Part shown: positions 15,001-54,792 of the stretch, in pieces
Numbering within the stretch: the first letter of the stretch is position 1
How the letters are laid out: the number at the start of each line of letters is the position of its first letter
From: a virus
Taxonomy: Duplodnaviria; Heunggongvirae; Uroviricota; Caudoviricetes
DNA length: 64,000 nucleotides
Direction: 5' to 3' (one strand)
Virus record (IMG/VR): IMGVR_UViG_3300032093_000003
Position numbers and translations under genes: made by a program
Notes under the pieces: model-generated
What the model saw: only the letters and a program-made list of their open reading frames with translations
Told to the model about the DNA's origin: nothing
The model's database searches: none

Positions 15001-17829
15001 ATATATTGATCCCCATTTTAATAGTAAATGATATGGTATAAAATGTGTTGAACCTATTTCTCTAAATAAAGAAGATACTTTTATGTTATTTGAAAATCTA
15101 TCTTCCAAATCTTTAAAAGGTAATGAATTAAGTAATAAATATGCAGAACCCACATACTTACCAACTCTTCCTGATTTGAAGAAATCGGAATATAATTGTT
15201 TGTGGAAATATGGTGTATTTAAAATATTGACTTTAGTATCTAAACCGAATGTTTGTACCGTACCAGGTACTGGTACTGTAGTGGTACCTAAATACAATTT
15301 ATTTGAAAATATATTATTCTTAAAATTATCTTTAACCCATAATTCGGGATTCACCTCTGTTGAAATAAATCCTTCCGATGTATTGACTTTTAAAGTGTTA
15401 CCAAATTTAAACTCATTATCAGTAAAACTATTTTGTTTTAAATAAGACAAATATGTTTTTGAATTAAATGGATATATTTCTGTTCTATATGTATCTGACT
15501 GATATCTTAATAAATCATCACTTAATTTAACATATAAAGAATCATTATTAACAGGTTTAGGGTTAGTATTATTATTAGAATTCCTGTTAGGGTCGTAATA
15601 TTGTTCAAAAATGTGTGGACTATCTATTATGCTAGAAATATAACCTACTGTTGGTAGTCTATCAACGTAATATGGATATCTATCAAATGGTGATAGACTT
15701 CTCATTAAGTTTAATAAGTCAGGAAAACTTTTAACACTGTCTCTTAATATATCAATAACATCATTGTCATGTTTTATCGACTCGCTTAAGTTTTCAAATT
15801 CAAAATTAGATAATTCTCTTATTGTATTTGAATTAAAAGAATCAAATAATGTTATATAATATGATCTTTCAAATATTTCATATAATATAGAAACTAATGT
15901 TTTTTCTGTATAAGGAATTACACCTAAAGATTTACCAAAACCATTTATTAGTGTGTCAAGTGTACTTATCTTTTTTATTTTACCCTCATCTAAATTATCT
16001 TCAAAAACGTAATCTATTTTACCAATACCACCTTCCTTTTCTGATAATGGGTCATATTTTTTAGTTGTTACCGCAATATAGTCTTCAACAAAATCAATTT
16101 CTGGCCACAATTTCTTATCATTAGTTTTCAATTTTTGTAATAGATCTTTATCACCAGGATATGCCACTACTTTACTTTTACTACCTGAACCTGTACTTTT
16201 TTTAACTTCCGGCCAAGGATATACCGCACCACCACCAGGTGTTTCATCGGAAAATCCGACTAATAAATTTTTTCTAGTTTCGGCATCTTGAAATGCCTTA
16301 TTATGTGTATCTTTTAATAGTCTAATGTAAACTTCTGCATTAGCAAGAACCACAGCAAATATGTTTCTTATTGTTGGTTCAAACCCAATACCCTTTTTAG
16401 GGTCTCTTAAAATTGTATTTATTTCTTTTTCAACATCTTTTTGTAGTGCATCTTTTTGTTTTAAAAATTCATTTACCATTTTTTTATAATCCTCACCAAG
16501 TAAATCAATATTCAACCCAACTTGTTTGTCTTTATAACCAATATAATCATCGATATTTTTAATATCGTTACTTTTCTTTAATTTAGTAAAATCACTACTT
16601 GTCTTGTTTATTACATTATTGGCAAATAAATTAGTTTTAGATAAAAGTTCTTTATACCTATTTAAACCCTTTTCAAGAGTATCGTCTGAATCTCCTTTTA
16701 TTTTTGATTTATCTGTTTTATCGGATATATTTAATAAATAAAATAATTCATCCCCCCTTGTTCCGCCAGTGAAACTAACAGTAGATAAATTTTTCTTTGT
16801 CCATATGTTTATGTATTCACCTAATTTTGATAAACCATCTTCATATTCAACTATACCTGCGAAAACCTTAAAATCTACTTTTTGAAATATTTCGTTTTCC
16901 AGTATTTTATCTAAACTTTCTGAAATTGTAATAAGTTCTTTAAGTGTTTTTACGGGAAAATTTGGATCAATTAATTTTTTTTGTTTTAGTTCATTATAAA
17001 CAGATCTTAAAATTGCATATCCTCTAGATGATTTTGAAATCTTTTTTTCAAAAGTACCACTACCTTCATTAAATGTTGGTCTTGTACTATTTTCAACTCT
17101 AAACATATAAGGACAATTTAACATACCATTTAATGGTATATCAGAAATGTGTGCAAATGTTGCACCAACGAATGTTGCCATACTTTCAAAATTACCAGAC
17201 CCTTCGTTAAATTTTGTTGTAAATTTTACTAAATGTAATCTATATCTAATTGCCTTCCCATAATAACCTTTAACTGTCAAATAAAATATCGGCCAAGGTA
17301 AATGAAAAAATGCTTTATATGGTGAGTTTTCGGGAGACTCAAATAATGTTTTACCTCTAACATCTATAAAGTTTATTGTAACTTGTGGAATTGAGTTCAA
17401 ACCTTTGGTTGTTATTGTTATACTATCAATACCAAAACTTTGTCCGGTTCCATCCGATTGAAAAAATTCACCAGTACCTACATTTATTTTATTACCATTT
17501 ATGTCGGTACTTTTTTTTGTAATTTCTGTTTTTTCTAAAAATGCATTTGTCCATGACGTATCAAAATCATCACCATTTTGATTTCTTAAAAAATTAAGAG
17601 TACCTTTTGCTATAGATATTAAAGTATTTTTATCATTACTAGAAACTAAAATAGATCTGGGAATAATATCCGCCTCCAAATTAACATACATCATCAAATT
17701 TTCAGGACGAATAGATCTAGGTTCTATTTCACCATCCACAACAACACTGTTAGGGTCGACATAAATTAAATTATTTACATCTGATTTAACAAGAATGTCC
17801 TCACTATTTGAAATATCTTTATTCCCCAT
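12040..17829 (-). CDS. Giant baseplate hub-like protein (gp27/late control D-like) with C-terminal RlpA-like domain
   Basis: 'GNVMIQPTMYFYL...GTYWITEVTHSI...TTNFTGTR' matches the C-terminal pattern of phage hub proteins; baseplate gene context. Confidence 0.6.
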   Translation of the reverse strand: MGNKDISNSEDILVKSDVNNLIYVDPNSVVVDGEIEPRSIRPENLMMYVNLEADIIPRSILVSSNDKNTLISIAKGTLNFLRNQNGDDFDTSWTNAFLEKTEITKKSTDINGNKINVGTGEFFQSDGTGQSFGIDSITITTKGLNSIPQVTINFIDVRGKTLFESPENSPYKAFFHLPWPIFYLTVKGYYGKAIRYRLHLVKFTTKFNEGSGNFESMATFVGATFAHISDIPLNGMLNCPYMFRVENSTRPTFNEGSGTFEKKISKSSRGYAILRSVYNELKQKKLIDPNFPVKTLKELITISESLDKILENEIFQKVDFKVFAGIVEYEDGLSKLGEYINIWTKKNLSTVSFTGGTRGDELFYLLNISDKTDKSKIKGDSDDTLEKGLNRYKELLSKTNLFANNVINKTSSDFTKLKKSNDIKNIDDYIGYKDKQVGLNIDLLGEDYKKMVNEFLKQKDALQKDVEKEINTILRDPKKGIGFEPTIRNIFAVVLANAEVYIRLLKDTHNKAFQDAETRKNLLVGFSDETPGGGAVYPWPEVKKSTGSGSKSKVVAYPGDKDLLQKLKTNDKKLWPEIDFVEDYIAVTTKKYDPLSEKEGGIGKIDYVFEDNLDEGKIKKISTLDTLINGFGKSLGVIPYTEKTLVSILYEIFERSYYITLFDSFNSNTIRELSNFEFENLSESIKHDNDVIDILRDSVKSFPDLLNLMRSLSPFDRYPYYVDRLPTVGYISSIIDSPHIFEQYYDPNRNSNNNTNPKPVNNDSLYVKLSDDLLRYQSDTYRTEIYPFNSKTYLSYLKQNSFTDNEFKFGNTLKVNTSEGFISTEVNPELWVKDNFKNNIFSNKLYLGTTTVPVPGTVQTFGLDTKVNILNTPYFHKQLYSDFFKSGRVGKYVGSAYLLLNSLPFKDLEDRFSNNIKVSSLFREIGSTHFIPYHLLLKWGSIYHRYKKKILDNNDILDGFLSTSNITTNFNGSEFFDNNSGFTFTLNGSGVTYSNNSDVGIHPYYDAIFHQVVNGYNHYDVFSGSPSFDVNVVAGGIIGNARVVTNGMRYWTTFVDNSKYDPKDLRFTVLPSDGGNSYIPQNNFFEQEQKYTRIIWEDEGLFKNFSGLTFASPYQYTRNYNSGSTTNDNIFSMDTNYRKVIDLIATFNPDILNEMEEMFINFATSTVKEELPYKKFESVFYDKFQSILKDLCSVEKISTDTGRTDQIIIDIKNRQKDKIQNIHTKLLSKDNLIKFTNGNPKEIDSYVVNGFANINSGSTFSYNTFNIAQVSPNSKYIDLYLGEDIDNKYLQFFATNDIELSEDNVIQFRSLAQIFAGHYLNTASPTKPDFIDYIRKNVLVIDSTTTLTKRHTEFLQNLISQFSKLTKTTDAQRMTPVSGFGDEILKLETYNFFKSFNDKWIGGNSIGQRLLFEEFLFLDKANKDIGSDAYFNIQKLIPLGDTKNQKLNLYSVISVLIQGTGFDMRVLPSYINFYGANYSNKVKLIPSKKLAKNLFGTFLEVDYQESSPKVILQYTGPTSKHLDLNKYNKDYKFIDDSFNIQDQNRNPLIITAPAVFDNAELSKSNRVVAFEVSFGDQNQGIFKGVQLDQSSLKNTTESFIAMENLGRSESGANAYQVDIGLYDIYRQSSYTCQVSSMGNVMIQPTMYFYLKNIPMFKGTYWITEVTHSIRNNNITTNFTGTRIPYASLPDPKEATMATYRPLFESIVNKAQIKVKESLIKRPESEISLTVQDGRTVTVDLSGKSFNGETLVHRSGVNIFGVPYNGFSDNKTTGEKYIQLIENKNYSSPDKNYEWLRAAVVKMGGGIYKIDDDMTMGVINNIKTDPKPKPLLWGEIKDSSSTSYFYGTRFQTPNVISGSKIITANAKFINPKNNKEVFVSPSYDLNSTVKKVTGPVHVGPLLQGYGICMSDKLMRDLGLIDGDIVYFKLY

Positions 17830-22988: not shown

Positions 22989-23025
22989 CTATAATTTATA
23001 TTATAAATAGGTTTTAATTAAAAAA

Positions 23026-38603: not shown

Positions 38604-38972
38604 TCAAAAAATGTTGATAAATAGTTTTTCTTTTAACGGAACAATTAATTTTGTTGTTGGATTCGAATTTGTGTCTAAAAATTGAATGGTAACAATTCCT
38701 TCAAATTTACCTTTTACAGATGTACCTTCTTCTGTAAATCTATATGTAATATAATATTCATCGGTTGTTTGGTCGTATTTCTTGGTTCTTGTGGTTATTA
38801 AACACTGACCATTTAAAATTTGAGGTTCTTCTGTTTTAAAATCATACATATCAAATGTGATATTTGAATTTTCTAACATATCATTAAAAGATGACTTGTC
38901 GTTTTTACCATCATCAATTAATCTTAATTTTAAAATTGGTTCAGTTGCTCCCTGTCTTATATTAAATTCCAT
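38604..38972 (-). CDS. Hypothetical, BppU N-terminal-like beta-sandwich protein
   Basis: 'FNIRQGATEPILKLRL...Y...GKFEGIVTI' pattern. Confidence 0.5.
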   Translation of the reverse strand: MEFNIRQGATEPILKLRLIDDGKNDKSSFNDMLENSNITFDMYDFKTEEPQILNGQCLITTRTKKYDQTTDEYYITYRFTEEGTSVKGKFEGIVTIQFLDTNSNPTTKLIVPLKEKLFINIF

Positions 38973-38994
38973 ATAGGTTTATTTTATAAATATT

Positions 38995-39888: not shown

Positions 39889-41046
39889 TTAATTATACAC
39901 TCTTATTTCTATTGATTCTATCGCATCTTGACCAATATCAATATAGTCTCCAACATTTACAATTCCATCATTAAAGACTAACTGAACTTCGTTATTTGAT
40001 ATTCTAACTCCTCCAGGAAATCCTGTATTTCCATTAAGACCATCATGAGTATAAATTATGAATGTTTTATTCTCAGGAAAAGCGTTACTTAAAGTACCCA
40101 AATAATATCCGACATTATTTCTTGTCCAAACTATATCACCAATAGTATTTTCTAAAACAGTAACAACAGGGTCAGTTATTCCAGATTGTCTTAATAAAGC
40201 AGTGTACACTTTATATTTAGGTCCATATGCCGTTGATTGTACCGTATCATCAGGGAAGGTTAGACCTGTAGTAGAAAAACTCCAAGCCGTCCCAACTCCA
40301 TCTGAGAAGTTAATGTTTACGTTTGTCGGATTGGCAACCACTGCACTACCTGGTGCGGATGGTCCACTACTTATTAAGTCGGGAATTGCGGTAGTCTGAA
40401 TAGATCCGTCGGGAAACTCTAAAGATCCGTCTGCACCGAAGGTCCAGTTACTAGCAGTTATTGCTCCGCCAATATAAGTTGATGAAGTTGTTAAAAAATC
40501 ACCTCCTGGTAGAAAGTAGTTACCTACTCCTCCATCTCCTTGTGGTGTTAGTACAGTACCAAATTGTAAAGTATAACCGCCAAGTATTCCAGGACCGTAT
40601 ATTGTCATACCATCTGTAATCGTACCGTTAATCATATCGGTAACATGTAGTGTTGCTCCTGGACCATCACCATATCCATTATCAATGTATCCTATAAATT
40701 CAACTTCTGCATCGGTTGTTTTTATTTGTACCTTATTTAATGAATCGCTTATTAATAGATTATTATTTTCACCACCAATTATTAAATCAGCGTTACTCTG
40801 ATCAATAGTACCTCCGGCTCTAATGTGAATGTGATTAGGACCGGTTGGATCTAAAACAACGTAACGATTATCATCGGTACTTGCGTCAGGTTTTAGGATA
40901 AGTGTAGTCAATCCTGAACCATCACCCGAACTTTCAGGTATTGATTCTATTTGACTACCTTCAGGAAAATTAAGAGGACTTGTTAAATTTATTTGAGGTA
41001 TTGTTTGTCCCGATACGTTATTTACAATATATTTTGTTGTTGCCAT
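39889..41046 (-). CDS. Putative tail fibre / virion appendage protein
   Basis: G/T/S/D-rich beta protein with repeated 'WTFGADGSLEFPDGSIQTTA' / 'WSFSTTGLTFPDDTVQSTA' fibre-like units. Confidence 0.65.
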   Translation of the reverse strand: MATTKYIVNNVSGQTIPQINLTSPLNFPEGSQIESIPESSGDGSGLTTLILKPDASTDDNRYVVLDPTGPNHIHIRAGGTIDQSNADLIIGGENNNLLISDSLNKVQIKTTDAEVEFIGYIDNGYGDGPGATLHVTDMINGTITDGMTIYGPGILGGYTLQFGTVLTPQGDGGVGNYFLPGGDFLTTSSTYIGGAITASNWTFGADGSLEFPDGSIQTTAIPDLISSGPSAPGSAVVANPTNVNINFSDGVGTAWSFSTTGLTFPDDTVQSTAYGPKYKVYTALLRQSGITDPVVTVLENTIGDIVWTRNNVGYYLGTLSNAFPENKTFIIYTHDGLNGNTGFPGGVRISNNEVQLVFNDGIVNVGDYIDIGQDAIESIEIRVYN

Positions 41047-41048
41047 TT

Positions 41049-43577
41049 TTATTCGTTTATATCTTTAATTGTTAATATATCACTTGAATCGTAATATGAT
41101 AATCTTTTATTTCCACCTTGTCTTTCAAAAATATGACAAGTATATGATTCATATACAGATGGATTAGGACTTACGCCGGTTATTGTTATTACAATGTCAC
41201 CATCACCGTCAGAACCACCAATAGCGGAACCTAATATAGTAATTGTGTCTCCAACATTGAAAGACGTTCCTGATGAAACAAGTGACATACTTGTAACCTC
41301 ACCACCAACAGGTGTAAACTGAAAGTCAGAACCAACACCGTTTCCACTATTTATAAATTTAGTAGGTTCAAAAAGTTCAATAATCTGTGTTGACCATGGA
41401 TTATCCGTTCTATTAGTTCCTAAAGCAGTATACGTAAATGATGTTATAATACCATAATTAGTTGTAAAATCAGTCCCACTAACGTCTGTATCAATAACAT
41501 TCCATTGGAAGTAATCACCAATAGTGTTATTTTGGAAGTAATTACCAACTCTATTATTGTAAAAGTATTCTCCAATAATATTATTTTGGAAAATATCACC
41601 AATGTAGTTTTTCTGTGAGTTAAATCCTCCAAATCCGAAACCTTCATCAATTATATTATTTTGGAAGAAACTACCAATTTCATTATGTTGGAAATTTTGT
41701 GCAATTGTATTTCCTTGAAAAGCAGAACCTATGTTGTTACCAACAAATCCGTCACCGATAATATTACTTGTAAATCCATCCTTAATTATATTTGCAAAAA
41801 CATTACCAAAAAAGTCATTACCTAAGAAAAATGAACCGAAAGAATTATCGGCACAAATCCCACTAAATTCATTTCCTGAAACACCCCAACCTGTTTTATT
41901 GGTGTAAAACTCTTGATATATTATATTACCTTTAAATTCATTGAATATTTGGTTATCGTAGAAATGACCATATATTGTGTTATTTTCAAATCGTTCTCCA
42001 ATGATATTGGTATAAAAATCTGAGTTTATTGTGTTATTATAAAAATCATGATCAATTTGGTTTTTATAAATCGATTCGTTAATTGTATTGTTAGAGAATC
42101 TAGTACCTATTCTATTTTCATAAAAATCTCTACTAGAAGGATTCAAAATATCACCTAATGTGTTATTCTCAAAATATTCACCGATAACATTATCATAAAA
42201 CACACAATAAAGGTTATTATTGTTAAATCCGTTACCAATTAAATTTCCATTACCTCCCCAATAAATTTCATTATTATAAAATCCATTACCAATATCGTTT
42301 TTATAAAATTGTTGTTTAATTTTATTATTATTGAACTGACTACCTATTTCGTTATTTTGAAAGTCTCCTCCACTTATTTCATTATCTCGGAAATCATTCA
42401 TAATATTATTTCTATAAAAACTATTTTGGACTATATAGTTGTTATAAAAGTTTTCACCAATTCTATTATATTGGAAATTTGAGGTAATTCTATTATTAAA
42501 AAACTCATTTCCGATAACATTAGCATCAAAGTCATCATCAGTAATGTTGTTAAAGAAATAGTTTCCAATGTTATTATCATAACAATCATCAAAAAATGTG
42601 TTATTATAACAACTATGACCAAATTTATTACCTATAAATCTATTATGAAAAACATTATTAGCTAAAATAAAGTCATTTTCATTCTCTTGATATAAATTGG
42701 CATGATTACCAATATAATTGTTATAATTACCAGTACCGTCAAAAGTATAATACTCTCCAAATAAAGAAGGGTCATCTACATTGTTTTGATAATAACTACC
42801 ATATTCGTCCCAAAAGGTACCATACATTTTAGTATTTGGACCTAAAGTTACGGTTGTTAATCCTGTAATAGCCATTTCGGTATCACTTACAATATTTGTT
42901 ACTTCAAAAACCCTAAAATCATTATTAACCGATTCAAAACCAATCTTATCGCCCACTATAAGAGTACTTAAGAAAATAGTATCAGTACCAAAAACTGTCA
43001 TTTCTGTTGAAGAAATATCCGCAACACTAACAGTTCCTTGATATGGATTGTTTAGTGAAACTTCATAGTATCTATATCTTTTGAATAAAATTGTTCTATG
43101 ATCGTAATCAGTTCTGTTATTAAACTCATCAATTCTTTCTGTTATTCTACCTTTAGCTGGTGATCCAGTTCTTTCTGTCACATTAAATGTTATATCATAC
43201 TTAATACTATCTTTTGGATAAGAAGGTTGATATGCGTTTTCAGATAAAGTTGAATTTGATGTTGCAAACACAATTATTGAGTCAATATCCGCAACTTTAT
43301 AGTTATTTCCGACTATGGAATTTTTATTGTAATCATAATCAGGTTGATCATAACAAGTTTGGAAATCTGTTATTCTATAATAAGAACCGGCAACAAATGT
43401 TGCACCTGTATATTTGTCATATAACTCTGAGTAAGTAATATCCTCAAATGTTAGATTATTAGTTATAGATGAAAAATCTATATGATATGTTGACCCACTT
43501 AATTCTACCGGAAATAATGTGTCCGAAGTGGGATTTGCTAGATTAGTTAATTGACCGATGGTTTTTCCTGTTAACAT
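41049..43577 (-). CDS. Putative tail spike/fibre with parallel beta-helix repeats
   Basis: Many 'N.IG..F.NN.I' repeats (about aa 290-690); N-terminus MLTGKTIGQLTNL. Confidence 0.7.
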   Translation of the reverse strand: MLTGKTIGQLTNLANPTSDTLFPVELSGSTYHIDFSSITNNLTFEDITYSELYDKYTGATFVAGSYYRITDFQTCYDQPDYDYNKNSIVGNNYKVADIDSIIVFATSNSTLSENAYQPSYPKDSIKYDITFNVTERTGSPAKGRITERIDEFNNRTDYDHRTILFKRYRYYEVSLNNPYQGTVSVADISSTEMTVFGTDTIFLSTLIVGDKIGFESVNNDFRVFEVTNIVSDTEMAITGLTTVTLGPNTKMYGTFWDEYGSYYQNNVDDPSLFGEYYTFDGTGNYNNYIGNHANLYQENENDFILANNVFHNRFIGNKFGHSCYNNTFFDDCYDNNIGNYFFNNITDDDFDANVIGNEFFNNRITSNFQYNRIGENFYNNYIVQNSFYRNNIMNDFRDNEISGGDFQNNEIGSQFNNNKIKQQFYKNDIGNGFYNNEIYWGGNGNLIGNGFNNNNLYCVFYDNVIGEYFENNTLGDILNPSSRDFYENRIGTRFSNNTINESIYKNQIDHDFYNNTINSDFYTNIIGERFENNTIYGHFYDNQIFNEFKGNIIYQEFYTNKTGWGVSGNEFSGICADNSFGSFFLGNDFFGNVFANIIKDGFTSNIIGDGFVGNNIGSAFQGNTIAQNFQHNEIGSFFQNNIIDEGFGFGGFNSQKNYIGDIFQNNIIGEYFYNNRVGNYFQNNTIGDYFQWNVIDTDVSGTDFTTNYGIITSFTYTALGTNRTDNPWSTQIIELFEPTKFINSGNGVGSDFQFTPVGGEVTSMSLVSSGTSFNVGDTITILGSAIGGSDGDGDIVITITGVSPNPSVYESYTCHIFERQGGNKRLSYYDSSDILTIKDINE

Positions 43578-43615
43578 GATTTTTTCTTTTTAATATAAAT
43601 ATCTTTTTAAATGAA

Positions 43616-43638
43616 AAACCCTCTAATTTAGAGGGTTT
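43616..43638. terminator. Bidirectional intrinsic terminator
   Basis: AAACCCTCTA-ATT-TAGAGGGTTT with A- and T-rich flanks. Confidence 0.7.
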
Positions 43639-43643
43639 GTTTT

Positions 43644-44687
43644 TTATACTGTTTCAGCAACAAATTTAAATTTATATGTTTTACTTGGATATGTTGCAGG
43701 TATTATAATACCAAAACCATAATATTCATTACTGTACGGGTTAAACACCGCATCAATTGGACCGGCATATGTTGGACCATTTGGATTAAGACTCAAATCA
43801 AGAACTGCACCGAGTGTATTTGAATCACCTATCTGAGTTGGATTATTAACAACAGAAGATCCTGGAGTTACTCTAGTTGTATATGTGTATGGATACCATT
43901 CAATACCAACGAGATCACCACCAATATCAACCCCACCACCTTGAAGACCTGAAGAAGATCCGTTAGGAGAAACTTTTAATGCTTTATATATACCAACAAA
44001 TAATCCATACTTACCATCGGCTTCAGTGTCCAATATATTTGTTGTTACCGTTAATTTACTAATTGATTGTGGTGTTGAAAAACTGTGCCAATATTGACTA
44101 TCAGGATATAAAATTAAACTTGTATCAACATTTATACCTGAACCAATACCTATTGATGGTGCTTGAAAATAATCGTATACACCGAAAGCCTTTGTTTCTG
44201 TTCCACCAGTATGACTAATCTCAAAAATTGGATAATCCGCCACATTTGAACTTAATGGTGTTACAGTTGTTGACCAACCGCCAGGTAATGGATTTTCATA
44301 ACATACAAAATCATATGATATACCATCGTTAGGTACTCTAAAAAATCCGTCTACTATACCATTAATATCACCACCACCATTTGATGGGAATACTCTAATT
44401 GATCTATCGGATTTATTAACAACACTAACTCTCTTACCTTTAATTGGTGTTGTGGGTAATTTTACTGCAAAATTTTCAGTTGTTGCTGTTGTTATTACAT
44501 TAATACCGTAAACCAACACCGCGGTTGTACCACTATCAACACCTTGTGGTATCAAATCTGAAACCTGTTCAACAAATCCTGAATATATCACATGATATGT
44601 TTGACCATCAAGTTGTACTGGTATAAGTGAATCTTGTGTGATTCTGTTTAAATTCGTTAATTGACCAATTGTTTTTCCTGTTAACAT
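43644..44687 (-). CDS. Putative fibre/appendage protein
   Basis: Same N-terminal module MLTGKTIGQLTNL; 'AVKLPTTPIKGKRVSVVN...IRVFP...INGI' fibre-type domain. Confidence 0.65.
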   Translation of the reverse strand: MLTGKTIGQLTNLNRITQDSLIPVQLDGQTYHVIYSGFVEQVSDLIPQGVDSGTTAVLVYGINVITTATTENFAVKLPTTPIKGKRVSVVNKSDRSIRVFPSNGGGDINGIVDGFFRVPNDGISYDFVCYENPLPGGWSTTVTPLSSNVADYPIFEISHTGGTETKAFGVYDYFQAPSIGIGSGINVDTSLILYPDSQYWHSFSTPQSISKLTVTTNILDTEADGKYGLFVGIYKALKVSPNGSSSGLQGGGVDIGGDLVGIEWYPYTYTTRVTPGSSVVNNPTQIGDSNTLGAVLDLSLNPNGPTYAGPIDAVFNPYSNEYYGFGIIIPATYPSKTYKFKFVAETV

Positions 44688-44714
44688 TTTATTTTTTTTT
44701 ATTTTTTTATACTT

Positions 44715-45896
44715 TTATTCAATAAATTGAAGATAAAATCCCTCACCGATTGAAATATATTCATTATTATCTGTTATTATTGGATCTACTAGAACTTCAT
44801 CTAATGGTGGACACTGACAATCACCAACATAAGTTATAGTGTAACTTGGGAATAAATCTAAATAAAAAGTTCCACCTGATATACAACTATTATCAAAAGG
44901 TGTATATTCTGTAACACCAGAATTTATGAGATCATTTTTTTGTTGTCCTGTACAACAATCAGTCCAAAATACATATGTAGAATCTGTAGTTACATCAAAT
45001 TGAACTGATGTATAACAACCTGAAATCGGTGACAGACACGTACCTGATGTAACTATTGGTAAAGGATTTTGTCCCGGACCAGTTAATTCCCACGTAGTAA
45101 CTAAATCAGGTGTTGCAACATTGTCGCTACTAAAATAATAACTAGTTCCTATATTTTTTATAAACCAAAATCCTCCAAATCCTGGCTCCCAAACTATAAA
45201 ATTATTTTCATTTGAATATGAATTTTTACCATCTACAATTCCCACAAATGTGTATGTACCATTAACAATAGATGATCCCGCATCGGACACACAAATTGGT
45301 CCAAATGGATCAATTGTAGGCGTTGGCGTTGGTGTTGGTGTATCTGTTGGTGTTGGTGTAGGTGTATCTGTTGGCGTTGGTGTTGGGGCATTAATTAAAA
45401 AGATTTCTGCAATAGAACCAAGAGGTGCCCCCGATAAAATCGGTTGACCAAATAAAACTTCACCGGTCAAATTACTATATTCTTCATTTATTGTGACAAT
45501 TGTTTGTCCTGTTAAGTTTGAGTGATTTATTGTAACACCAGTAGAAATAGTCACCGAACCACCTGAAAATAAACTTAAAAACATTTCAAAATATAAAGTA
45601 ACGTTACCACTAACTCTACGATTAGAAATTAAGTTAAATTTACCAATTATTGAACCGGGTAAAATTTCTGTTTCTAAACTTAATTCTAATGGTGTTGGAT
45701 CGGGTACCAATAAAGAATATGTGTGATCATATTCCCCAAAGTACAAATCATATATACCATATGGGTTTGTGTCATAATAATTAAATGGAACTGTTTTGAC
45801 ACCCAAATTAAACGATCCACCGGAAGTTGGATTAAAAGTAACATTTGTTGTTTTACCACTCAAATTATTACTTAATATTCTTGCACCTATTGCCAT
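44715..45896 (-). CDS. Putative virion appendage protein with Pro/Thr linker
   Basis: PTPTPTD repeats, Cys-containing beta-domains, C-terminal 'IITDNNEYISI' motif. Confidence 0.65.
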   Translation of the reverse strand: MAIGARILSNNLSGKTTNVTFNPTSGGSFNLGVKTVPFNYYDTNPYGIYDLYFGEYDHTYSLLVPDPTPLELSLETEILPGSIIGKFNLISNRRVSGNVTLYFEMFLSLFSGGSVTISTGVTINHSNLTGQTIVTINEEYSNLTGEVLFGQPILSGAPLGSIAEIFLINAPTPTPTDTPTPTPTDTPTPTPTPTIDPFGPICVSDAGSSIVNGTYTFVGIVDGKNSYSNENNFIVWEPGFGGFWFIKNIGTSYYFSSDNVATPDLVTTWELTGPGQNPLPIVTSGTCLSPISGCYTSVQFDVTTDSTYVFWTDCCTGQQKNDLINSGVTEYTPFDNSCISGGTFYLDLFPSYTITYVGDCQCPPLDEVLVDPIITDNNEYISIGEGFYLQFIE

Positions 45897-45951
45897 TTTT
45901 TATTTTATTTATAAATATCTTTAATTTACTATTTATTTTTTCATATTAAAT

Positions 45952-47418
45952 TTATTCCAAAATTTCGTGATTCAGATCACCGGTTGGTATTATCAAATAA
46001 GACAATTCTCCGTTAGGTATAATTGTATATATTGTATCGTTATTTGGGATTATTAAGTGTGTTAAGTTATTAGGTATTATTAAATAAGACAAATCCCCGT
46101 TAGGTAATATATTATAATTTATATCGTTATTTGGAATTATTAGATATGTTAAATCATTTTTTGGTGCAAATATAAATTCATAATTTATTGTATATTGAGC
46201 ATTAATTGTATTTGGAACAACATTTAATTGATCATAAGATGCTGTGGCATTTAATAAATTGTAATCATCATTCAAATTAACAATCGTACTTCCACTAGTA
46301 CCATTTTGCTCTATTGATACTGAATTTGTTATTGTTATTGGTGATCCCGATATCACACCAAGATTATTAACAAAATTTAATGTTATAGATTCAAATAATG
46401 GTTTATCTGACGTTAATATATATTTTGATTTAATAGATCCTGGAGTGAAAATTGCCTTAAGATTTAAATTAAAATTCGTACCTGAACCAATTAAATTATC
46501 ATCACATTTAACACCACAAATTTCAAAATCAAACTCATTCAGTCTGGTCATAAAATTATGATAAACCTGAACAAAATTTAACGGTTCTTCATAATATTTT
46601 ATTGTTTTTATATTAAATTCAGAAACACCTTCGTGAATACCCATCATTAATGGTGTACCACCTCCCCATGATTGTATGAATGGTTGAACACCTCTATTTG
46701 AAGGTATTACCTCTTCAAAATCTTTTATTTTTGCAATAGGTCTACCATTTAAATATATTTTTAAAATACCCAATCTGTTTTTTCTTTCATTCGCCCATTT
46801 TCTGTTTAAAACTTCAGGATACGAATAATCGGGAGTGGCCCCCGTCATAACATCAAGAGGATTGTTATTTAATGTTCTACCGGTAATTAAATCATTCCAA
46901 CCACCATCATTTTCTAAATTACAATCTGTTAATCTTTTATATCGGTCAAATGTTATTGTAATATTAAAATCTTTATTTAGATCTGTAACACATAATGGGT
47001 CCGTTTGACCATTTGTAACATAATAAGATTCGGTATACCCACTATTTGTTTGACATATACCCAAATAACGAATTGCAGACCATTTTATTCTACCATCATT
47101 TGTAAAACCAAAAGATAGGTTATTGTCTGCATAATTTTTAATGTTGTCATCACCCCTAACACCAATATAATAAAAAATACTACCTTGTGACCAATTTAAA
47201 CCCTCTCTATTGAATACAAAGTCAAGGGTCCATCCTTTTTCTGGTCTTCTTTTTATTATACCATCACAATTATCGGGACCGGCACCACTATCAATTTTAA
47301 ACGCCCAAGGTTTTACACCCGTTTTTGGGGCTTGTGAACAACAATTATCAGGATCAGATAATTTTTCCACACAATCAATAATAGAAACCGAAAATCCCGA
47401 AATATTTAATATTGACAT
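45952..47418 (-). CDS. Putative LamG/ConA-like virion protein with C-terminal 10-aa repeats
   Basis: 'LKIYLNG', 'IKTIKYYEEPL' LamG-like patterns; tail 'NDLTYLIIPN' repeated about 7 times. Confidence 0.6.
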   Translation of the reverse strand: MSILNISGFSVSIIDCVEKLSDPDNCCSQAPKTGVKPWAFKIDSGAGPDNCDGIIKRRPEKGWTLDFVFNREGLNWSQGSIFYYIGVRGDDNIKNYADNNLSFGFTNDGRIKWSAIRYLGICQTNSGYTESYYVTNGQTDPLCVTDLNKDFNITITFDRYKRLTDCNLENDGGWNDLITGRTLNNNPLDVMTGATPDYSYPEVLNRKWANERKNRLGILKIYLNGRPIAKIKDFEEVIPSNRGVQPFIQSWGGGTPLMMGIHEGVSEFNIKTIKYYEEPLNFVQVYHNFMTRLNEFDFEICGVKCDDNLIGSGTNFNLNLKAIFTPGSIKSKYILTSDKPLFESITLNFVNNLGVISGSPITITNSVSIEQNGTSGSTIVNLNDDYNLLNATASYDQLNVVPNTINAQYTINYEFIFAPKNDLTYLIIPNNDINYNILPNGDLSYLIIPNNLTHLIIPNNDTIYTIIPNGELSYLIIPTGDLNHEILE

Positions 47419-47464
47419 TACATTTTTTATATAAATATCAATGAAATAAAAGATTTGATAATAA

Positions 47465-47493
47465 AAAACCCCACATAATACATGTGGGGTTTT
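47465..47493. terminator. Bidirectional intrinsic terminator
   Basis: AAAACCCCACAT / ATGTGGGGTTTT stem. Confidence 0.75.
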
Positions 47494-47515
47494 ATTTTTG
47501 ATTTTTAATCAAATC

Positions 47516-48106
47516 TTATACTGCTAATTTTTTAACATATATTGTTGTTGGGGCACCGTTACTATTTGACGGGAATGGTGCATTTATTGATGGATTTATT
47601 GAAACTGTATAATATGTTGGTGAAGTAATGTTAACAATTGTATGACCATATATTATTTGATCGTCCGAAGTCTCTGTACTTGAATAATCTGAAATCATAT
47701 TACCTACAGTCATTGCACCGTTAGATGTTGTTGAACTATTTAATCTAACACTAACGTCGATACTATTGAATAAGTCAAAAATATGTACACTTGAAGTTAT
47801 TTCATAAAATCCAGGTTCTTTAAAAAATATTCTAGCACCTGTATTACCTGCTTGTGTTGAGTTAACTAATTCAAAAATATCGGTATTACTATTAAGAATG
47901 GTAGTGTCCCATCTAGGATAGTTTTCAACACCATTTGTTAAGTTAGCATAGTTTGTTGTCCAAGAAAAAGATGCAACTGCGGAATCTAAAAAAACAGATC
48001 TGGTTACTTTAAATGTTTCTGTTTCACCACTATTATTCATCACCACGTATGAACCAGTGGTGTCCCCTGTAAATAAGGGTAATTGACTTATTTTAACGTT
48101 AGCCAT
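47516..48106 (-). CDS. Putative fibre tip protein (C1q/TNF-like jelly roll)
   Basis: N-terminal 'MANVKISQLP'; 'IFFKEPGFYEITSSV' resembles the C1q-like 'F..P..G.Y' motif. Confidence 0.55.
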   Translation of the reverse strand: MANVKISQLPLFTGDTTGSYVVMNNSGETETFKVTRSVFLDSAVASFSWTTNYANLTNGVENYPRWDTTILNSNTDIFELVNSTQAGNTGARIFFKEPGFYEITSSVHIFDLFNSIDVSVRLNSSTTSNGAMTVGNMISDYSSTETSDDQIIYGHTIVNITSPTYYTVSINPSINAPFPSNSNGAPTTIYVKKLAV

Positions 48107-48154
48107 ATTCTTTTTTTATATAAATATCATAGATTTATGTTTTTTCAATTTTTT

Positions 48155-49381
48155 TTAATACAAACCTACTTGATAAAATGTTTTACCTGATAAAATTAAT
48201 TTTTCGGTAGAACTTCTACCTAAAACAATATGTGTTTCGGTAATACCTGTATTTGAATAATTAACAGTTTGTCCTGTCCAAGGAGAAATATTTATGGCGT
48301 CTACAACATCATCTATTCTATTGGCGTATCCAAAATATGTAACACCACCAATTAGTCCACCAGCAAATACCAACCCAACAATTTTTCTTGTTCCTGAAAT
48401 ATCAGCAACAAGAGCGGATCCCGAATCACCACCATTTATTGGATATGAACATATACTACCATTCGGTGTTGTAGTTGCACTCGCAATAAATTGTATACAT
48501 CTACCAAATTGAACCACAGTGTCGTTCCCCTGCTTAGTATATGCAATATTAATTGTTACAGGATATGAATTTGTTAAAAGTTTCATTTCACCTTCACCTT
48601 TAGATCCGGTCGTTCTACCCGCACTAAATAAATTGTTTTTATTTGTTAATAATCCGTCAATTTCAGAAGAAGTTGCAAATTCGAGTGGTTGCGTCCATCC
48701 GGTAACACCTTCCATTAAATAAGAAGTACTTATGTTAATATCTGAAGAATTAATGGTTGTTAATGCAACATCTGCATAGTTTATTGAACCACTTGAAATT
48801 GGTTTATATTTTTTTACTTTACCAATTGCATTATTTAAACTTGAATTACCCGATTCATTTGGTTGTGTAACAAAATCATTAAGTATTGATGTTTTTATTC
48901 CACCTAAACTTCTATCTGAATTTAAAAATGCATCGTAAACTAAAACATGATTATTTGATACACCCACCAATGAATTTGTCTCGTTGTCAACAGCCAAAAA
49001 CCCCATCGTCCCAACAAACCCACTTAAATCACTAAAATTTGTTACAGATATACCACATTTTAAAGGTCTTATTTTATTTCTATTGGATGGAGGTGTTGTT
49101 TGCCAATTATAAAAATCAGAAGGACATGTTAATGGTTTTATTTCCAATTCTACCACATCTGTTTTAAATGTCTCACCAGAATATGTTATGGTATTTGGGA
49201 TTAAATCTTTTTCATCCACTTGTTCTATCGGTAATTTTTTCGACACACTGAAAATCAATGATTTTTCTGTTGTTAATAAACCATTTTTTGTTTTATATCC
49301 ATATCCAACACCAATAACATTATCTGAAGTCTCTTGTTGATATTTTATTGTCAATTCATCCAATAATTTCATGTCTTCCAT
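48155..49381 (-). CDS. Trypsin-like (S1/PA clan, Nal1-type) serine protease
   Basis: Triad motifs 'SNNHV', 'ADVAL', 'GGDSGS', plus 'GRTTG' and 'VGLVFAG'; N-terminal prodomain-like region. Confidence 0.85.
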   Translation of the reverse strand: MEDMKLLDELTIKYQQETSDNVIGVGYGYKTKNGLLTTEKSLIFSVSKKLPIEQVDEKDLIPNTITYSGETFKTDVVELEIKPLTCPSDFYNWQTTPPSNRNKIRPLKCGISVTNFSDLSGFVGTMGFLAVDNETNSLVGVSNNHVLVYDAFLNSDRSLGGIKTSILNDFVTQPNESGNSSLNNAIGKVKKYKPISSGSINYADVALTTINSSDINISTSYLMEGVTGWTQPLEFATSSEIDGLLTNKNNLFSAGRTTGSKGEGEMKLLTNSYPVTINIAYTKQGNDTVVQFGRCIQFIASATTTPNGSICSYPINGGDSGSALVADISGTRKIVGLVFAGGLIGGVTYFGYANRIDDVVDAINISPWTGQTVNYSNTGITETHIVLGRSSTEKLILSGKTFYQVGLY

Positions 49382-49384
49382 ATG

Positions 49385-52300
49385 TTATAAATTTGGTATA
49401 AAGATAAATAATGTGTTGACTGTTGAATCAATTATTAAAAAATCAGAATTTTCTGTTAATATATTATCCGAACCTTCCGTTGATAAATAATCTTCAGGGA
49501 CACTTGTCGATGTTGGCGTTGGTGTAGGTGTTGGAGTTGGCGTCTCAGTTGGTGTAGGTGTACTAGTTTCAGTTGGTGTAGGTGTACTAGTTTCTGTTGG
49601 TGTAGGTGTACTAGTTTCTGTTGGCGTTTCTGTTGGTGTAGGTGTACTAGTTTCTGTTGGTGTAGGTGTACTAGTTTCTGTTGGCGTTTCTGTTGGTGTA
49701 GGTGTACTAGTTTCTGTTGGCGTTTCTGTTGGTGTAGGTGTACTAGTTTCTGTTGGTGTTGGCGTCTCCGTAGGAGTTGGCGTTTCTGTTGGCGTAGGTG
49801 TACTAGTTTCAGTTGGTGTTGGCGTACTAGTCTCCGTAGGAGTTGGTGTCTCGGTTGGCGTAGGTGTACTAGTTTCTGTTGGTGTTGGCGTTTCTGTTGG
49901 TGTCTCGGTTGGCGTTGGTGTACTAGTTTCAGTTGGTGTTGGTGACGGTGTTGGGTCAGGACACTCATCCTGTTCTAATGAAATATAATCACTATTCTCA
50001 GTTAATACATAAAACCCATCTTCTTTTGTTAATAATTTTTCACAAGTTTCTATTGGTGTTGGTGTTGGCGTTTCAGTTGGTGTTGGCGTACTAGTCTCCG
50101 TAGGAGTTGGTGTCTCGGTTGGTGTTGGTGTTTCTGTTGCAGTTGGCGTAGGTGTTTCTGTTGCGGTTGGTGTAGGTGTACTAGTTTCTGTTGGTGTTGG
50201 CGTTGGTGTACTAGTTTCAGTTGGCGTTGGTGTACTAGTTTCTGTTGGTGTAGGTGTACTAGTTTCTGTTGGTGTTGGCGTTGGTGTACTAGTTTCTGTT
50301 GGTGTTGGCGTTGGTGTACTAGTTTCTGTTGGTGTTGGCGTCTCCGTAGGAGTTGGCGTTTCAGTTGGCGTTGGTGTACTAGTTTCTGTTGGTGTTGGCG
50401 TCTCCGTAGGAGTTGGCGTTTCAGTTGGTGTTGGCGTACTAGTCTCCGTAGGAGTTGGTGTCTCGGTTGGCGTTGGCGTAATAGTTTCAGTTGGTGTTGG
50501 GGACGGTGTTGGGGTCGGTGTTGCTGTAGGTGTAGGAGTAGGTATTGTCACATACACATAGTTAGTTGAAATTGTGAAACCACTTAAAGTTCCTCCTGTT
50601 GTATTAACAGTAATATTTTCAAATTGAGATTCTAGTGTTAGTTCATTATAATTACCATTTGTTACGATTTGTGTCGTTCCACTTGTTGTACCACTTGATA
50701 ATAATAATGTAACATTATTAATTATCGGACTTCCAGTTGTGGTATATAATACCTCATCAAAATTTAAAGAAATGTCAAAATCATATTGTTGAAATATATA
50801 TGTATTATAATTACTGATTATTGAACCTTCAGTATGTTCAGATTCAATAATTATTGTACCACAATTTCCATCTTCAAATATTATATAATCACCATTTTCA
50901 GTTGTTATTAAATTACCATTTTCACCTTCAACTATTATTTCACATAATGGTAATGTAGGTGTTGGTGTTGGAGTTGGTGTTTCTGTTGGAGTTGGAGTCT
51001 CAGTTGGTGTAGGCGTTGGCGTACTAGTTTCAGTTGGTGTAGGCGTTGGCGTACTAGTTTCAGTTGGTGTAGGCGTTGGTGTTTCTGTTGCAGTTGGCGT
51101 TGGCGTACTAGTTTCAGTTGGTGTAGGCGTTGGTGTTTCTGTTGCAGTTGGCGTTGGGGTTGATGTTGCGGTTGGTGTAGGCGTTGGAATAGGTCCGGGT
51201 TCCGCACCAAAAATACCCCATAAAAGATTTGTTCTAAATTCTATACCAGTAAATGTTAATGTTATTTGACTATGTGTACCTGGGAATCTTATAACACCAT
51301 ATCCTTCATTTGATGATATTTTTTTATTTATTGGATCAACTATTAGTCCATTAAAACATGTCGGATAACATGGATCAAAATTAACAAAATCAACATCGGT
51401 AAAGAATGTTTGAGTTTGTGTCGGCGAACCTAAAGACCAAACACCTAATAATGCGTCTGTTATTTGAGGATTAAATGTAAAGGTTAATTGATTTGGACCC
51501 TCAACTAAATAGGTTATACCAGTACTCGGTTGTGTAACATCAGTACATGTTAAACAATCTGTAAATTGTGCACTTTCTTTACTTACAATTCCCGATCCAC
51601 TATAACTCACTGAAACATCATGAGATTGTGTTGTTGTTATAATTTGACCTTCAGTAACACCTGTATTTATAAAATATTCCCAAACAATATTTTGAATACT
51701 TGGTGTTGGTGGAAGTGTAGGTGTTGGAGGAGTACAATCGTTTATCTCGGTATATATTATACTACCATCTTCTGTTGTTATAATGATATCATTTTCACCT
51801 GACACAACACCAATACAAGTACCTATATTAGTGGTTATACCACCTTCATCATCAATAACACTTGATGCACAGAAATAAACCTGACTATTACCCGAAACTT
51901 CAATTGTGATAGGTGAAGAAGTTAAACAATCCAAATATGTTACAAAACTTGAACTTGGGAAAGTGTTATTTGCTAAATAACAATAACAATTAAGTATAGT
52001 AGGTGTTGGCGTTGGTGTAGGTGTACTAGTTTCTGTTGGTGTAGGTGTACTAGTTTCTGTTGGTGTAGGTGTACTAGTTTCAGTTGGTGTTGGTGTACTA
52101 GTTTCTGTTGGTGTAGGTGTACTAGTTTCAGTTGGCGTTGGTGTACTAGTTTCAGTTGGTGTAGGTGTACTAGTTTCTGTTGGTGTTGGTGTACTAGTTT
52201 CAGTTGGCGTTGGGGTTGATGTTGCGGTTGGAGTACTAGTTGCAGTTGGAGTACTAGTTGCAGTTGGAGTACTAGTTGCAGTTGGAGTACTAGTTGCAGT

Positions 52301-52837
52301 TGGAGTACTAGTTGCAGTTGGTGTTGGAGTACTAGTTGCAGTTGGTGTTGGAGTACTAGTTGCTGTTGGAGTACTAGTTGCGGTTGGGGTTGGTGTAATT
52401 GTGGGTGTTGGGGTTAATGTCGGGCTAGGTGTTGGTGTCGGAATGGCAATACTTAAATAATGAGTTTCTCCCGATATTCCAACATATGTATATATATGAT
52501 TACTTAGTATTATATGAGAATAGATATATTCAGGAACATTAAAATGTGTTACAAATTCATTGTAGTTAAATGTTACAGATAAACCGGAATATATATAATT
52601 AGGATTATTTATCGTATTATCTATCTCAACAAGTGTTATTGTTAAGGTATTACTACTAAAATTTTCTAAACTATCGTCTATTTTTAATGAATTATAAAAA
52701 ATTGGACCACTAAAATCAAGTACCTCTTTATTGTAATCATTACCTATTTTTGATAATTCATAATCGTAATATTCTGAGCTATCCAATTTAACATCTAATC
52801 TAGACCCAAAAAACTTTAAAATGTTCTGATTATTCAT
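49385..52837 (-). CDS. Large mucin-like Pro/Thr-rich virion scaffold protein
   Basis: Four long [14 protein letters not shown] tracts separating globular segments and 'T(E/K)E(N/D)G' peptide motifs. Confidence 0.75.
49505..50540 (-). repeat. Coding tandem repeats (18/24-bp units encoding [14 protein letters not shown]), interrupted by a short motif at about 49960-50050
   Basis: Repeated GGTGTACTAGTTTC(T/A)GTTGG(T/C)GT units. Confidence 0.9.
50950..51190 (-). repeat. Coding Pro/Thr tandem repeats
   Basis: Same unit family as the other tracts. Confidence 0.85.
52000..52440 (-). repeat. Coding Pro/Thr tandem repeats ([14 protein letters not shown])
   Basis: Repeated GGAGTACTAGTTGCAGTT and GGTGTACTAGTTTC units. 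Confidence 0.9.
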
Positions 52838-52842
52838 ATTTT

Positions 52843-52875
52843 AATAAATATCTTTCGAAACGTTTGATATTTATA
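52843..52875. promoter_or_regulatory. Back-to-back divergent GATATTTAT promoter motifs at the strand switch
   Basis: Minus-strand copy at 52843-52852 (GATATTTATT) before 52837; plus-strand copy at 52866-52875 (GATATTTATA) before 52891. Confidence 0.6.
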
Positions 52876-54132: not shown

Positions 54133-54792
54133 ATGCCAACACAATTAGAAATTATCGCAAACCAACAAAGAGTTGAACATTTGGCAAGAAATGAATACAA
54201 CTATTCAGACTTATATTCTTCAGTAAACACGAGAGCTTTATCTGATGGTGATGAAGCGGGTAAAGGTGAAAATAATGGTTCTATTGGTTCTTTGACAGAC
54301 ATCAACACAAGAAACGATTTAAAAGGTAGAAACATATATAATGAAAACAATGGTTATTCATCGGTAAACACAAGAGCATTATCCGATGGTGATGAACCAG
54401 GTAAAGGAGAGAATAATGGTAATGTTGGTGGACAAACAGATATATTAACAAGGGTCGATAACACCGGTAGAAATTTATATTCACCTAATAATCAATATTC
54501 TTCAGTAAACACGAGGGCTTTATCTGATGGTGACGAAGCGGGTAAAGGTGAAAACAACGGTTCTATCGGGGGTCAAACAGATATTTTCACAAGAGTTGAT
54601 AATACTGGCAGAAACTTATATTCCCCTAATAATCAATATTCTTCAGTAAACACAAGAGCATTATCTGATGGTGACGAAGCGGGTAAGGGGGAGAATAATG
54701 GATCTGTAGGTTCATTAACAGATATAAACATAAGAGTAGATAATACAGGTAGGAACATTTACGGACTAACAAGACAATATCCTGATTTCTAA
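54133..54792 (+). CDS. Repeat protein, 4 x 47-aa units
   Basis: Unit YSSVNTRALSDGDE(A/P)GKGENNG..G..TDI..R....RN.Y.... Confidence 0.8.
   Translation: MPTQLEIIANQQRVEHLARNEYNYSDLYSSVNTRALSDGDEAGKGENNGSIGSLTDINTRNDLKGRNIYNENNGYSSVNTRALSDGDEPGKGENNGNVGGQTDILTRVDNTGRNLYSPNNQYSSVNTRALSDGDEAGKGENNGSIGGQTDIFTRVDNTGRNLYSPNNQYSSVNTRALSDGDEAGKGENNGSVGSLTDINIRVDNTGRNIYGLTRQYPDF

Follow-up and report, generated by a model that had tools for sequence, protein, structure and literature searches.

The locus considered here raises the question of how a long protein built on Pro/Thr tracts and the fibre-type genes that follow it belong together. It lies at positions 41,049 to 52,837 of a 64,000-nucleotide stretch of DNA (hereafter the window) from a virus of the Caudoviricetes, IMG/VR record IMGVR_UViG_3300032093_000003. 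A sequence-only reading had likened it to a cellulosome, with short 'TExG' peptides on the Pro/Thr scaffold as docking sites for interchangeable receptor-binding or enzymatic heads. Our analysis favours another answer, to which we give a probability of about 0.55: that the block is a late-expressed adhesion/host-recognition cluster of a large freshwater contractile-tailed phage, with mucin-like multi-domain fibres alongside conventional fibres that bear adaptors. In the first kind of fibre (p1150, p488 and p393) an N-terminal attachment domain would be followed by extended Pro/Thr linkers, probably O-glycosylated and carrying small beta-rich binding-type domains in cis, and the TExG peptides would be integral mini-domains of the stalk, most likely small rigid or metal-stabilised nodes and not sockets. 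The second kind (p196, p347, p842 and perhaps p385) would be conventional fibres or spikes whose N-terminal module serves as an adaptor that plugs variable heads into the virion, as in branched receptor-binding complexes. The genes form a single co-directional block on the minus strand, in this order:

49385-52837 (-), p1150, a Pro/Thr-linked bead-on-a-string protein
48155-49381 (-), p408, a trypsin-like serine protease (phrog_20754, E = 5e-23) whose start overlaps the p1150 stop
47516-48106 (-), p196, a small fibre-type protein with a KISQLP-type module at residues 1-41 (47984-48106)
45952-47418 (-), p488, with domain C (residues 6-305), domain B (309-397) and C-terminal tandem repeats
44715-45896 (-), p393, with an N-terminal module, domain B, a short Pro/Thr linker, a Cys-rich domain and a TExG-like C-terminus
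43644-44687 (-), p347, with a 36-amino-acid N-terminal module (44580-44687) and a unique head
41049-43577 (-), p842, with a 36-amino-acid N-terminal module (43470-43577), a conserved body and Asn-rich repeats
39889-41046 (-), p385, the last gene of the block, whose start abuts the p842 stop and which has no family match; probably a further fibre component

The open reading frames (ORFs) and motifs listed in the sequence-only reading, including the four p1150 peptides and the similar end of p393, were all found again. In p1150, globular segments alternate with Pro/Thr tracts (30% Thr, 16% Pro), and the five linkers, of 12-168 amino acids, are imperfect tandem arrays at the DNA level. Its N-terminal part runs from domain A (residues 1-132) through a linker, a Cys-rich domain with TExG and domain D (381-548) to another linker; its C-terminal part consists of a TExG with a beta-rich domain (631-763), a linker, a lone TExG, a linker, and a last TExG with the C-terminal tail. 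Within it we distinguish the following features, where L, G and P numbers denote related loci, contigs and proteins:

52442-52837 (-), domain A, the N-terminal scaffold domain, 68% identical to L001 and 50-55% to L010-L013
51734-51817 (-), TExG 1, residues 341-368, C-x26-C
51194-51697 (-), domain D, residues 381-548, 60% identical over 198 amino acids to the L001 ORF 5225-8077
50861-50944 (-), TExG 2, residues 632-659, C-x26-C
49961-50044 (-), TExG 3, residues 932-959, C-x26-C, isolated between two Pro/Thr linkers of ~160 amino acids
49415-49492 (-), TExG 4, residues 1116-1141, without the Cys bracket
49388-49417 (-), the hydrophobic C-terminal tail

Domain A is N-terminal in every relative compared (L001 and L010-L013) and is likely to be the end that attaches to the virion. 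Domain D, for which a pattern scan found no locus, is fused in L001 behind a p488-like N-terminus, and this is one instance of a reshuffling that runs through the relatives. In L001/L002 one gene combines domain A with three TExG, and a second joins a p488-type N-terminus to a p1150-type domain D, two TExG and the same C-terminal tail. In L010-L013 a single chain of 1221-1621 amino acids carries domain A, domain C, domain B, IIPNND repeats, a D-like domain and more, and p488 corresponds over its full length to an interior stretch of the giant L010-L012 scaffolds. In p488 itself, domain C is rich in beta structure, with a slight suggestion of a lectin-like fold, domain B is a beta-sandwich, and the C-terminus consists of tandem IIPNND-type 10-amino-acid repeats (45955-46164) related to TExG. 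The p393 N-terminal module (residues 1-67; 45696-45896) is kept on different bodies elsewhere, and the TExG-like C-terminus of p393 (44718-44786) lacks the Cys bracket. Pfam places Laminin_G_3 in the chains of relatives (E = 3e-18 in L011 and 7e-9 in L012) and Cohesin, with scores of 31-33 bits that exceed its curated cut-off, in the positional counterparts of p1150 in the distant lineage of L004, L005 and L007. The counterpart in L004-L008 stands directly upstream of the protease (~38% identical) and ends in a tail similar to that in the window; in L005 and L007 the sheath gene comes immediately after those for the Pro/Thr proteins and the protease. Modular Pro/Thr-linked proteins are thus present, as the sequence-only reading had held, and are reshuffled between relatives. 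Domains that are separate in the window and fused in relatives show that modular exchange takes place in cis by way of the linkers, with TExG as part of the stalk.

The TExG peptides themselves form a well-defined mini-domain, neither a loose linear motif nor a product of chance. All nine Cys-bracketed copies in the window and L001 are exactly 28 residues long (C-x26-C); in the alignment C5, E12, E20, E28 and C32 are invariant, with the three Glu spaced 8 apart, and each copy is built of two or three strand-turn repeats of 8-9 residues. A copy is always either an island in Pro/Thr linkers or at a C-terminus. A regular expression run over 394 ORFs matched only Pro/Thr proteins, apart from one spurious match, and a strict hidden Markov model (HMM) applied to all fetched DNA found four copies in the window, six in L001/L002 and none in other loci. 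Eight further proteins came from a word search of 5.8 billion proteins with the TExG alignment: each has one to three TExG between Pro/Thr linkers, with varied N-terminal domains upstream (homologues of a 122-amino-acid protein of the window and of the p393 N-terminus among them) and varied heads downstream. TExG is also found in small proteins bearing heads of their own (p393 and P0197), and its copies ('YLTDELGNFILTE' type) resemble one another closely, whether they come from one genome or from proteins that otherwise differ. A dockerin-like or EF-hand-like identity was tried and rejected, there being no Pfam match and the strand-turn period of 8-9 residues being unlike a loop-helix.

The 122-amino-acid protein, a conserved one, stands alone in the window (38604-38972), adjoining the polymerase, and is homologous to the N-terminal domains of P0193 and P0198 (E = 1e-15 and 1e-13), which are Pro/Thr-linked TExG proteins from other phages. 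Judging by these homologies it may be a virion-attachment domain that occurs both free and fused. The heads of the Pro/Thr-linked family range, by eye, to a Hint-like segment in the C-terminal third of P0198 and to BspA-type leucine-rich repeats (L016 8819-10261, 480 amino acids) at the end of a Pro/Thr-linked protein.

The second kind of fibre is recognised by its N-terminal modules. The first 36 amino acids of p842 and p347 are 67% identical (E = 3e-11) and the two proteins have nothing else in common. As the sequence-only reading had noticed, their starts are near-identical in DNA too (30 of 33 nucleotides at the 5' end). The first 39 nucleotides differ at four positions, all of them synonymous, and this therefore argues for selection on the peptide, beyond mere recent DNA exchange. 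That reading had also assigned p196 to the same module, which holds only indirectly: neither BLASTP nor HMMs found significant similarity between the p196 module and those of p842 and p347, and hhalign gave a probability of 5% (P = 0.008), in register. However, the p842 orthologue in L017 (49% identity over 322 amino acids, E = 2e-83) starts MANVKISELP, like p196, and then continues like p842; the two module types are therefore linked through an intermediate. Neither a pattern scan nor a word search turned up any relative of the p347 head, three related contigs had none either, and look-ups of p347 and p393 in the ESM Atlas returned nothing above noise. In p842, residues ~290-690 consist of about 400 residues of Asn-rich repeats of ~9 amino acids (N-x-I-G-x-x-F type) with no family match; judged by eye, this region resembles a long beta-solenoid shaft, and the protein is of spike or fibre type.

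The p196 module scores 95 bits against a local KISQLP-type HMM, and an exhaustive profile search with it returned 403 cluster representatives, 184 of them below 1e-10. Every match covers residues 1 to about 41, and the proteins range from 36 to 1443 amino acids in length. In 24 of the 129 members scanned the module runs on into collagen repeats, and other bodies include S74 chaperone, endosialidase, YadA-head, FKBP and tail-tip domains; many PHROG tail-fibre families match members. In P0037 and P0036 the N-module and the p196 head are each paired with other partners. The claim that interchangeable heads follow a conserved N-terminal module is thus borne out, and it agrees with the known adaptor principle of phage fibres. 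These profile matches make the KISQLP-type module a widespread N-terminal module of tail fibres, one that has no Pfam entry. The conserved N-terminal peptides and anchor domains of branched receptor-binding complexes (PMC6872550, PMC13352976) offer an analogy by which it is most likely a virion-attachment adaptor; among solved structures, none contains the N-module or p196.

That the block belongs to the structural programme of a contractile-tailed phage is suggested by its surroundings. The window (G+C about 30%) encodes a tail sheath, a tail tube, baseplate J and wedge proteins and a baseplate hub, together with a family B DNA polymerase, a UvsX-like recombinase, a DnaB-like helicase and a ribonucleotide reductase; with its sheath, tube, baseplate J/wedge and replication genes it is therefore part of a large contractile-tailed phage (a myovirus segment). 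An identical copy of p196 is present on a contig of 286,787 bp. A ATATTTATA-type element lies 17-48 nucleotides before the start codon of 16 of the 49 genes, where 1.3 would be expected; these include the sheath, the tube, a baseplate gene, p196, p488, p393 and p842, and p1150 is preceded by the variant TATAAATA. An element common to structural and fibre genes suggests that they are co-regulated, and it is probably a late promoter of the phage. Two terminator-like hairpins also punctuate the block:

43594-43601, 45906-45917, 47430-47437, 48119-48126, 38985-38992, 26445-26452, 29587-29598, 23002-23009 and 52868-52875, examples of the ATATTTATA/TATAAATA element
43616-43638 (-), terminator-like hairpin after p347, followed by a ATATTTATA element before p842
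47465-47493 (-), terminator-like hairpin after p196

The glycosyltransferases of the window are a GT2, which neighbours the Pro/Thr proteins, and weak GT4-like genes. In L001 and L016, genes of the PF11397 polypeptide GlcNAc-transferase type, not found in the window, lie near Pro/Thr proteins, and in L017 the neighbours of the Pro/Thr proteins are GT17, GT2, an epimerase and GT4. Such neighbours would fit glycosylated linkers, short of proof.

The protease gene p408 has counterparts of 84% identity in L001-L003 and of 37-41% in L004-L009. Wherever a lineage has the protease, a hydrophobic tail of the NT(L/I)F type closes the scaffold encoded just upstream of it (window 49388-49417; L001 8045-8074; the ends of L004 698-2371, L005 855-2531 and L007 662-2422), and the protease-free lineages L010-L013 and L017 do not have this tail. 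This co-occurrence suggests that the protease recognises or processes that C-terminus.

How, then, does the preferred reading compare with its rivals? According to the sequence-only reading, the TExG peptides are trans docking sockets for the N-terminal modules of p196, p347 and p842, and together they form a branched, cellulosome-like appendage with swappable heads. We found nothing that positively supports this and regard it as very unlikely, even though TExG is conserved, short and exposed in flexible linkers at 4-6 copies per locus, in four lineages (the window, L001, L010 and L017) the gene straight after a scaffold gene codes for an N-module fibre, other phages are known to dock proteins through conserved short peptides at the N-terminus (PMC6872550, PMC13352976), and a true cohesin occurs in the counterpart protein of a distant lineage. 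Each of the two motifs is found without the other, and their copy numbers do not track. The N-module family, with its 403 clusters, is far commoner than TExG, which was found in the window, L001/L002 and the eight further proteins. L014 and L015 have an N-module fibre and no TExG was found in them by HMM; nor was any found in an unrelated phage whose N-module fibre adjoins the portal gene. Conversely, L016 has a TExG protein and no N-module gene within 18.8 kb, and G001, the 73-kb contig of L001, lacks a p347-type module and has a single KISQLP gene for its six TExG. Small proteins with a head of their own can bear TExG as well, it is also found at extreme C-termini, and heads that resemble binding domains are joined in cis. 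Only the Cys, Glu and hydrophobic TExG positions are invariant, a pattern of the structural kind. No dockerin was detected: a Pfam scan of the window's scaffold and fibre proteins gave neither cohesin nor dockerin, and PF00404 gave nothing over its cut-off in the contigs of five relatives, the sub-threshold matches being confined to surface proteins of G005 that have signal peptides and are encoded away from the fibre locus. A variant that lets TExG, perhaps together with the IIPNND repeats, associate specifically and non-covalently with fibre N-modules or other scaffold chains along a mucin-like stalk would make them a new socket-plug pair unrelated to cohesin-dockerin within a branched, reconfigurable adhesion apparatus; its prospects seem to us just as slim.

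TExG and IIPNND repeats could instead be functional units in their own right, namely acidic beta-repeat nodes, perhaps dependent on Ca2+, whose task would be to bind host glycans or to hold Pro/Thr chains together in register. The three invariant Glu and the Asn/Asp-Gly turns within an exactly 28-residue disulfide-bracketed unit would suit such a role, as would the high similarity of copies across different proteins, the frequent position of the repeats at the extreme C-terminus, where fibre tips lie, and a period of 8-10 residues, which is typical of beta-roll or beta-helix repeats. We nevertheless consider it unlikely, because the fold of the mini-domain is predicted with low confidence (predicted local distance difference test, pLDDT, 55), TExG has no family match, and two to three repeats are few for a beta-helix. 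Another possibility removes the Pro/Thr proteins from the tail altogether: they might decorate the capsid or neck (as Hoc-like or whisker-like adhesins) or be non-virion glycoproteins released at lysis, with p408 processing them via the C-terminal tail. The p196 module aside, no block protein matches a known tail-fibre family, two distant lineages have the NT(L/I)F-type scaffold tail together with the protease gene, and where the gene is missing so is the tail, and the window block adjoins the DNA polymerase, away from the baseplate genes. Yet the upstream element of the block also precedes sheath, tube and baseplate genes, the counterpart of the block in L005 and L007 comes directly before the sheath gene, the proteins have no signal peptide, and N-terminal domains that stay constant while the bodies vary usually indicate virion-attached fibres; this explanation, too, is rather improbable.

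Several points weigh against the adhesion-fibre reading that we prefer. The virion location of the block proteins is something that we infer, and p1150, p488 and p393 match no Pfam family at E <= 0.1. The AlphaFold2 model of p488 residues 1-420 has a pLDDT of 52, with only the beta-sandwich of domain B moderately confident. When compared by Foldseek, its matches to lectin-like jelly-rolls were weak (template-modelling score, TM, about 0.25); the lectin-like reading of p488 rests on such weak scores because the fold models are poor. The AlphaFold2 model of TExG (pLDDT 55) offered nothing usable beyond a hint of a hairpin. The conservation of TExG exceeds what a passive spacer would need and would therefore fit a specific interaction, and the adjacency of N-module genes and scaffolds in four lineages makes a functional link between them possible. 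Finally, the related contigs are all fragments, 8-60% complete, and arguments from absence are therefore weak. What the sequences do show is the anatomy, the homologies, how domains are shuffled, how the modules are distributed and the common upstream element; that these proteins sit on the virion, that their linkers are glycosylated, that the N-modules are adaptors and what TExG does are matters that we infer.

Among known systems, the closest parallels to the second kind of fibre are the branched receptor-binding complexes of phage G7C (gp66/gp63.1), of the Klebsiella phage groups KP32/KP34 and PhiK64-1, and of the Ackermannviridae tailspikes, in which the socket is a T4gp10-like branching domain of the primary receptor-binding protein (PMC6872550, PMC13352976, PMC11414711). 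As in those complexes, fibre or spike genes are clustered here, a short conserved N-terminus precedes variable bodies (p842/p347 and p196) and the heads are exchangeable. There the conserved peptide is a docking element, a role that the N-module would share by analogy; the N-module is, however, a different, more widespread family of 36-41 amino acids that is not in Pfam. No Pfam or PHROG match to a T4gp10-like branching domain was obtained in the scanned window proteins, which cover 64 kb of a ~287-kb genome and were not subjected to an HHpred-type search against T4 gp10.

The likeness to a cellulosome, on which the sequence-only reading had laid weight, is partial. Long Pro/Thr linkers between modules do recall a scaffoldin, and the Pfam Cohesin domain is present in the counterpart protein of a distant relative. 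But the window proteins are without cohesin or dockerin, a single cohesin is all that relatives have, with no dockerin passing the cut-off, the modules are covalently joined in one chain rather than docked, and TExG is not dockerin-like because it has no EF-hand loop-helix pairs.

Carbohydrate-binding modules (CBMs) on the tail proteins of lactococcal and Lactobacillus siphophages and the Ig-like T4 Hoc are familiar virion decorations. They share with the p1150 family the use of accessory beta-sandwich binding-type domains in cis on structural proteins, which raise adhesion to glycans. Unlike them, the domains here are set on mucin-like Pro/Thr linkers of 80-170 amino acids, up to about ten per chain, with extra mini-domains (TExG and IIPNND repeats) and neighbouring glycosyltransferases. 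Mucin-like O-glycosylated linkers are likewise known from glycanases, and glycosylation from mycobacteriophage capsids and tails and from giant-virus fibrils. Here, too, Thr/Pro-rich tracts adjoin phage glycosyltransferases, of the PF11397 type in relatives; in contrast to those systems, glycosylation here is only probable, and the window itself has GT2 and weak GT4-like genes in place of the PF11397 gene.

If the preferred reading is true, this freshwater phage lineage has unusually long, mucin-like, probably glycosylated fibres that string together many freely reshuffled lectin-type domains. Such fibres would take the use of accessory adhesion domains on virions to an extreme and would affect host finding or sticking to particles and polysaccharide. 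Two elements may be reused elsewhere: the widespread N-terminal module of tail fibres, which Pfam lacks and which can help to locate receptor-binding genes in metagenomes, and the 28-amino-acid disulfide-bracketed acidic mini-domain. Cellulosome-like docking is a testable long shot.

Cultured phages offer little by way of comparison: a megablast of the region against them gave no match, the window polymerase is only about 25% identical to theirs, and literature searches found no earlier description of these proteins. One 203-kb relative (G005) has, at L018 (139000-157000 of the contig; ORFs 12850-15156 and 15149-16813 on the minus strand), a cluster of Bacteroidota-style signal-peptide proteins, one of which matches cohesin above the cut-off and, below threshold, resembles dockerin; by eye it also contains a segment like a C-type lectin. 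These cohesin and dockerin-like proteins were rejected as part of the system, since they have signal peptides and lie in a separate, host-derived-looking cluster. The cluster does hint at a Bacteroidota host.

Between the p196 gene and the gene of the 122-amino-acid protein lies a variable island (window 39889-47418; L001 10048-17328). In the window it holds five fibre-type genes, and in L001/L003 a PF11397 polypeptide GlcNAc-transferase-type gene, a TylF methyltransferase plus HtrL/GT2 protein, and other enzyme-like genes. On the other side of the block, divergent from the scaffold gene, is a conserved gene for a 219-amino-acid protein (window 54133-54792, L001 734-1399, L010 8052-8711), which contains four repeats holding the acidic Gly-rich motif 'ALSDGDE.GKGEN'.

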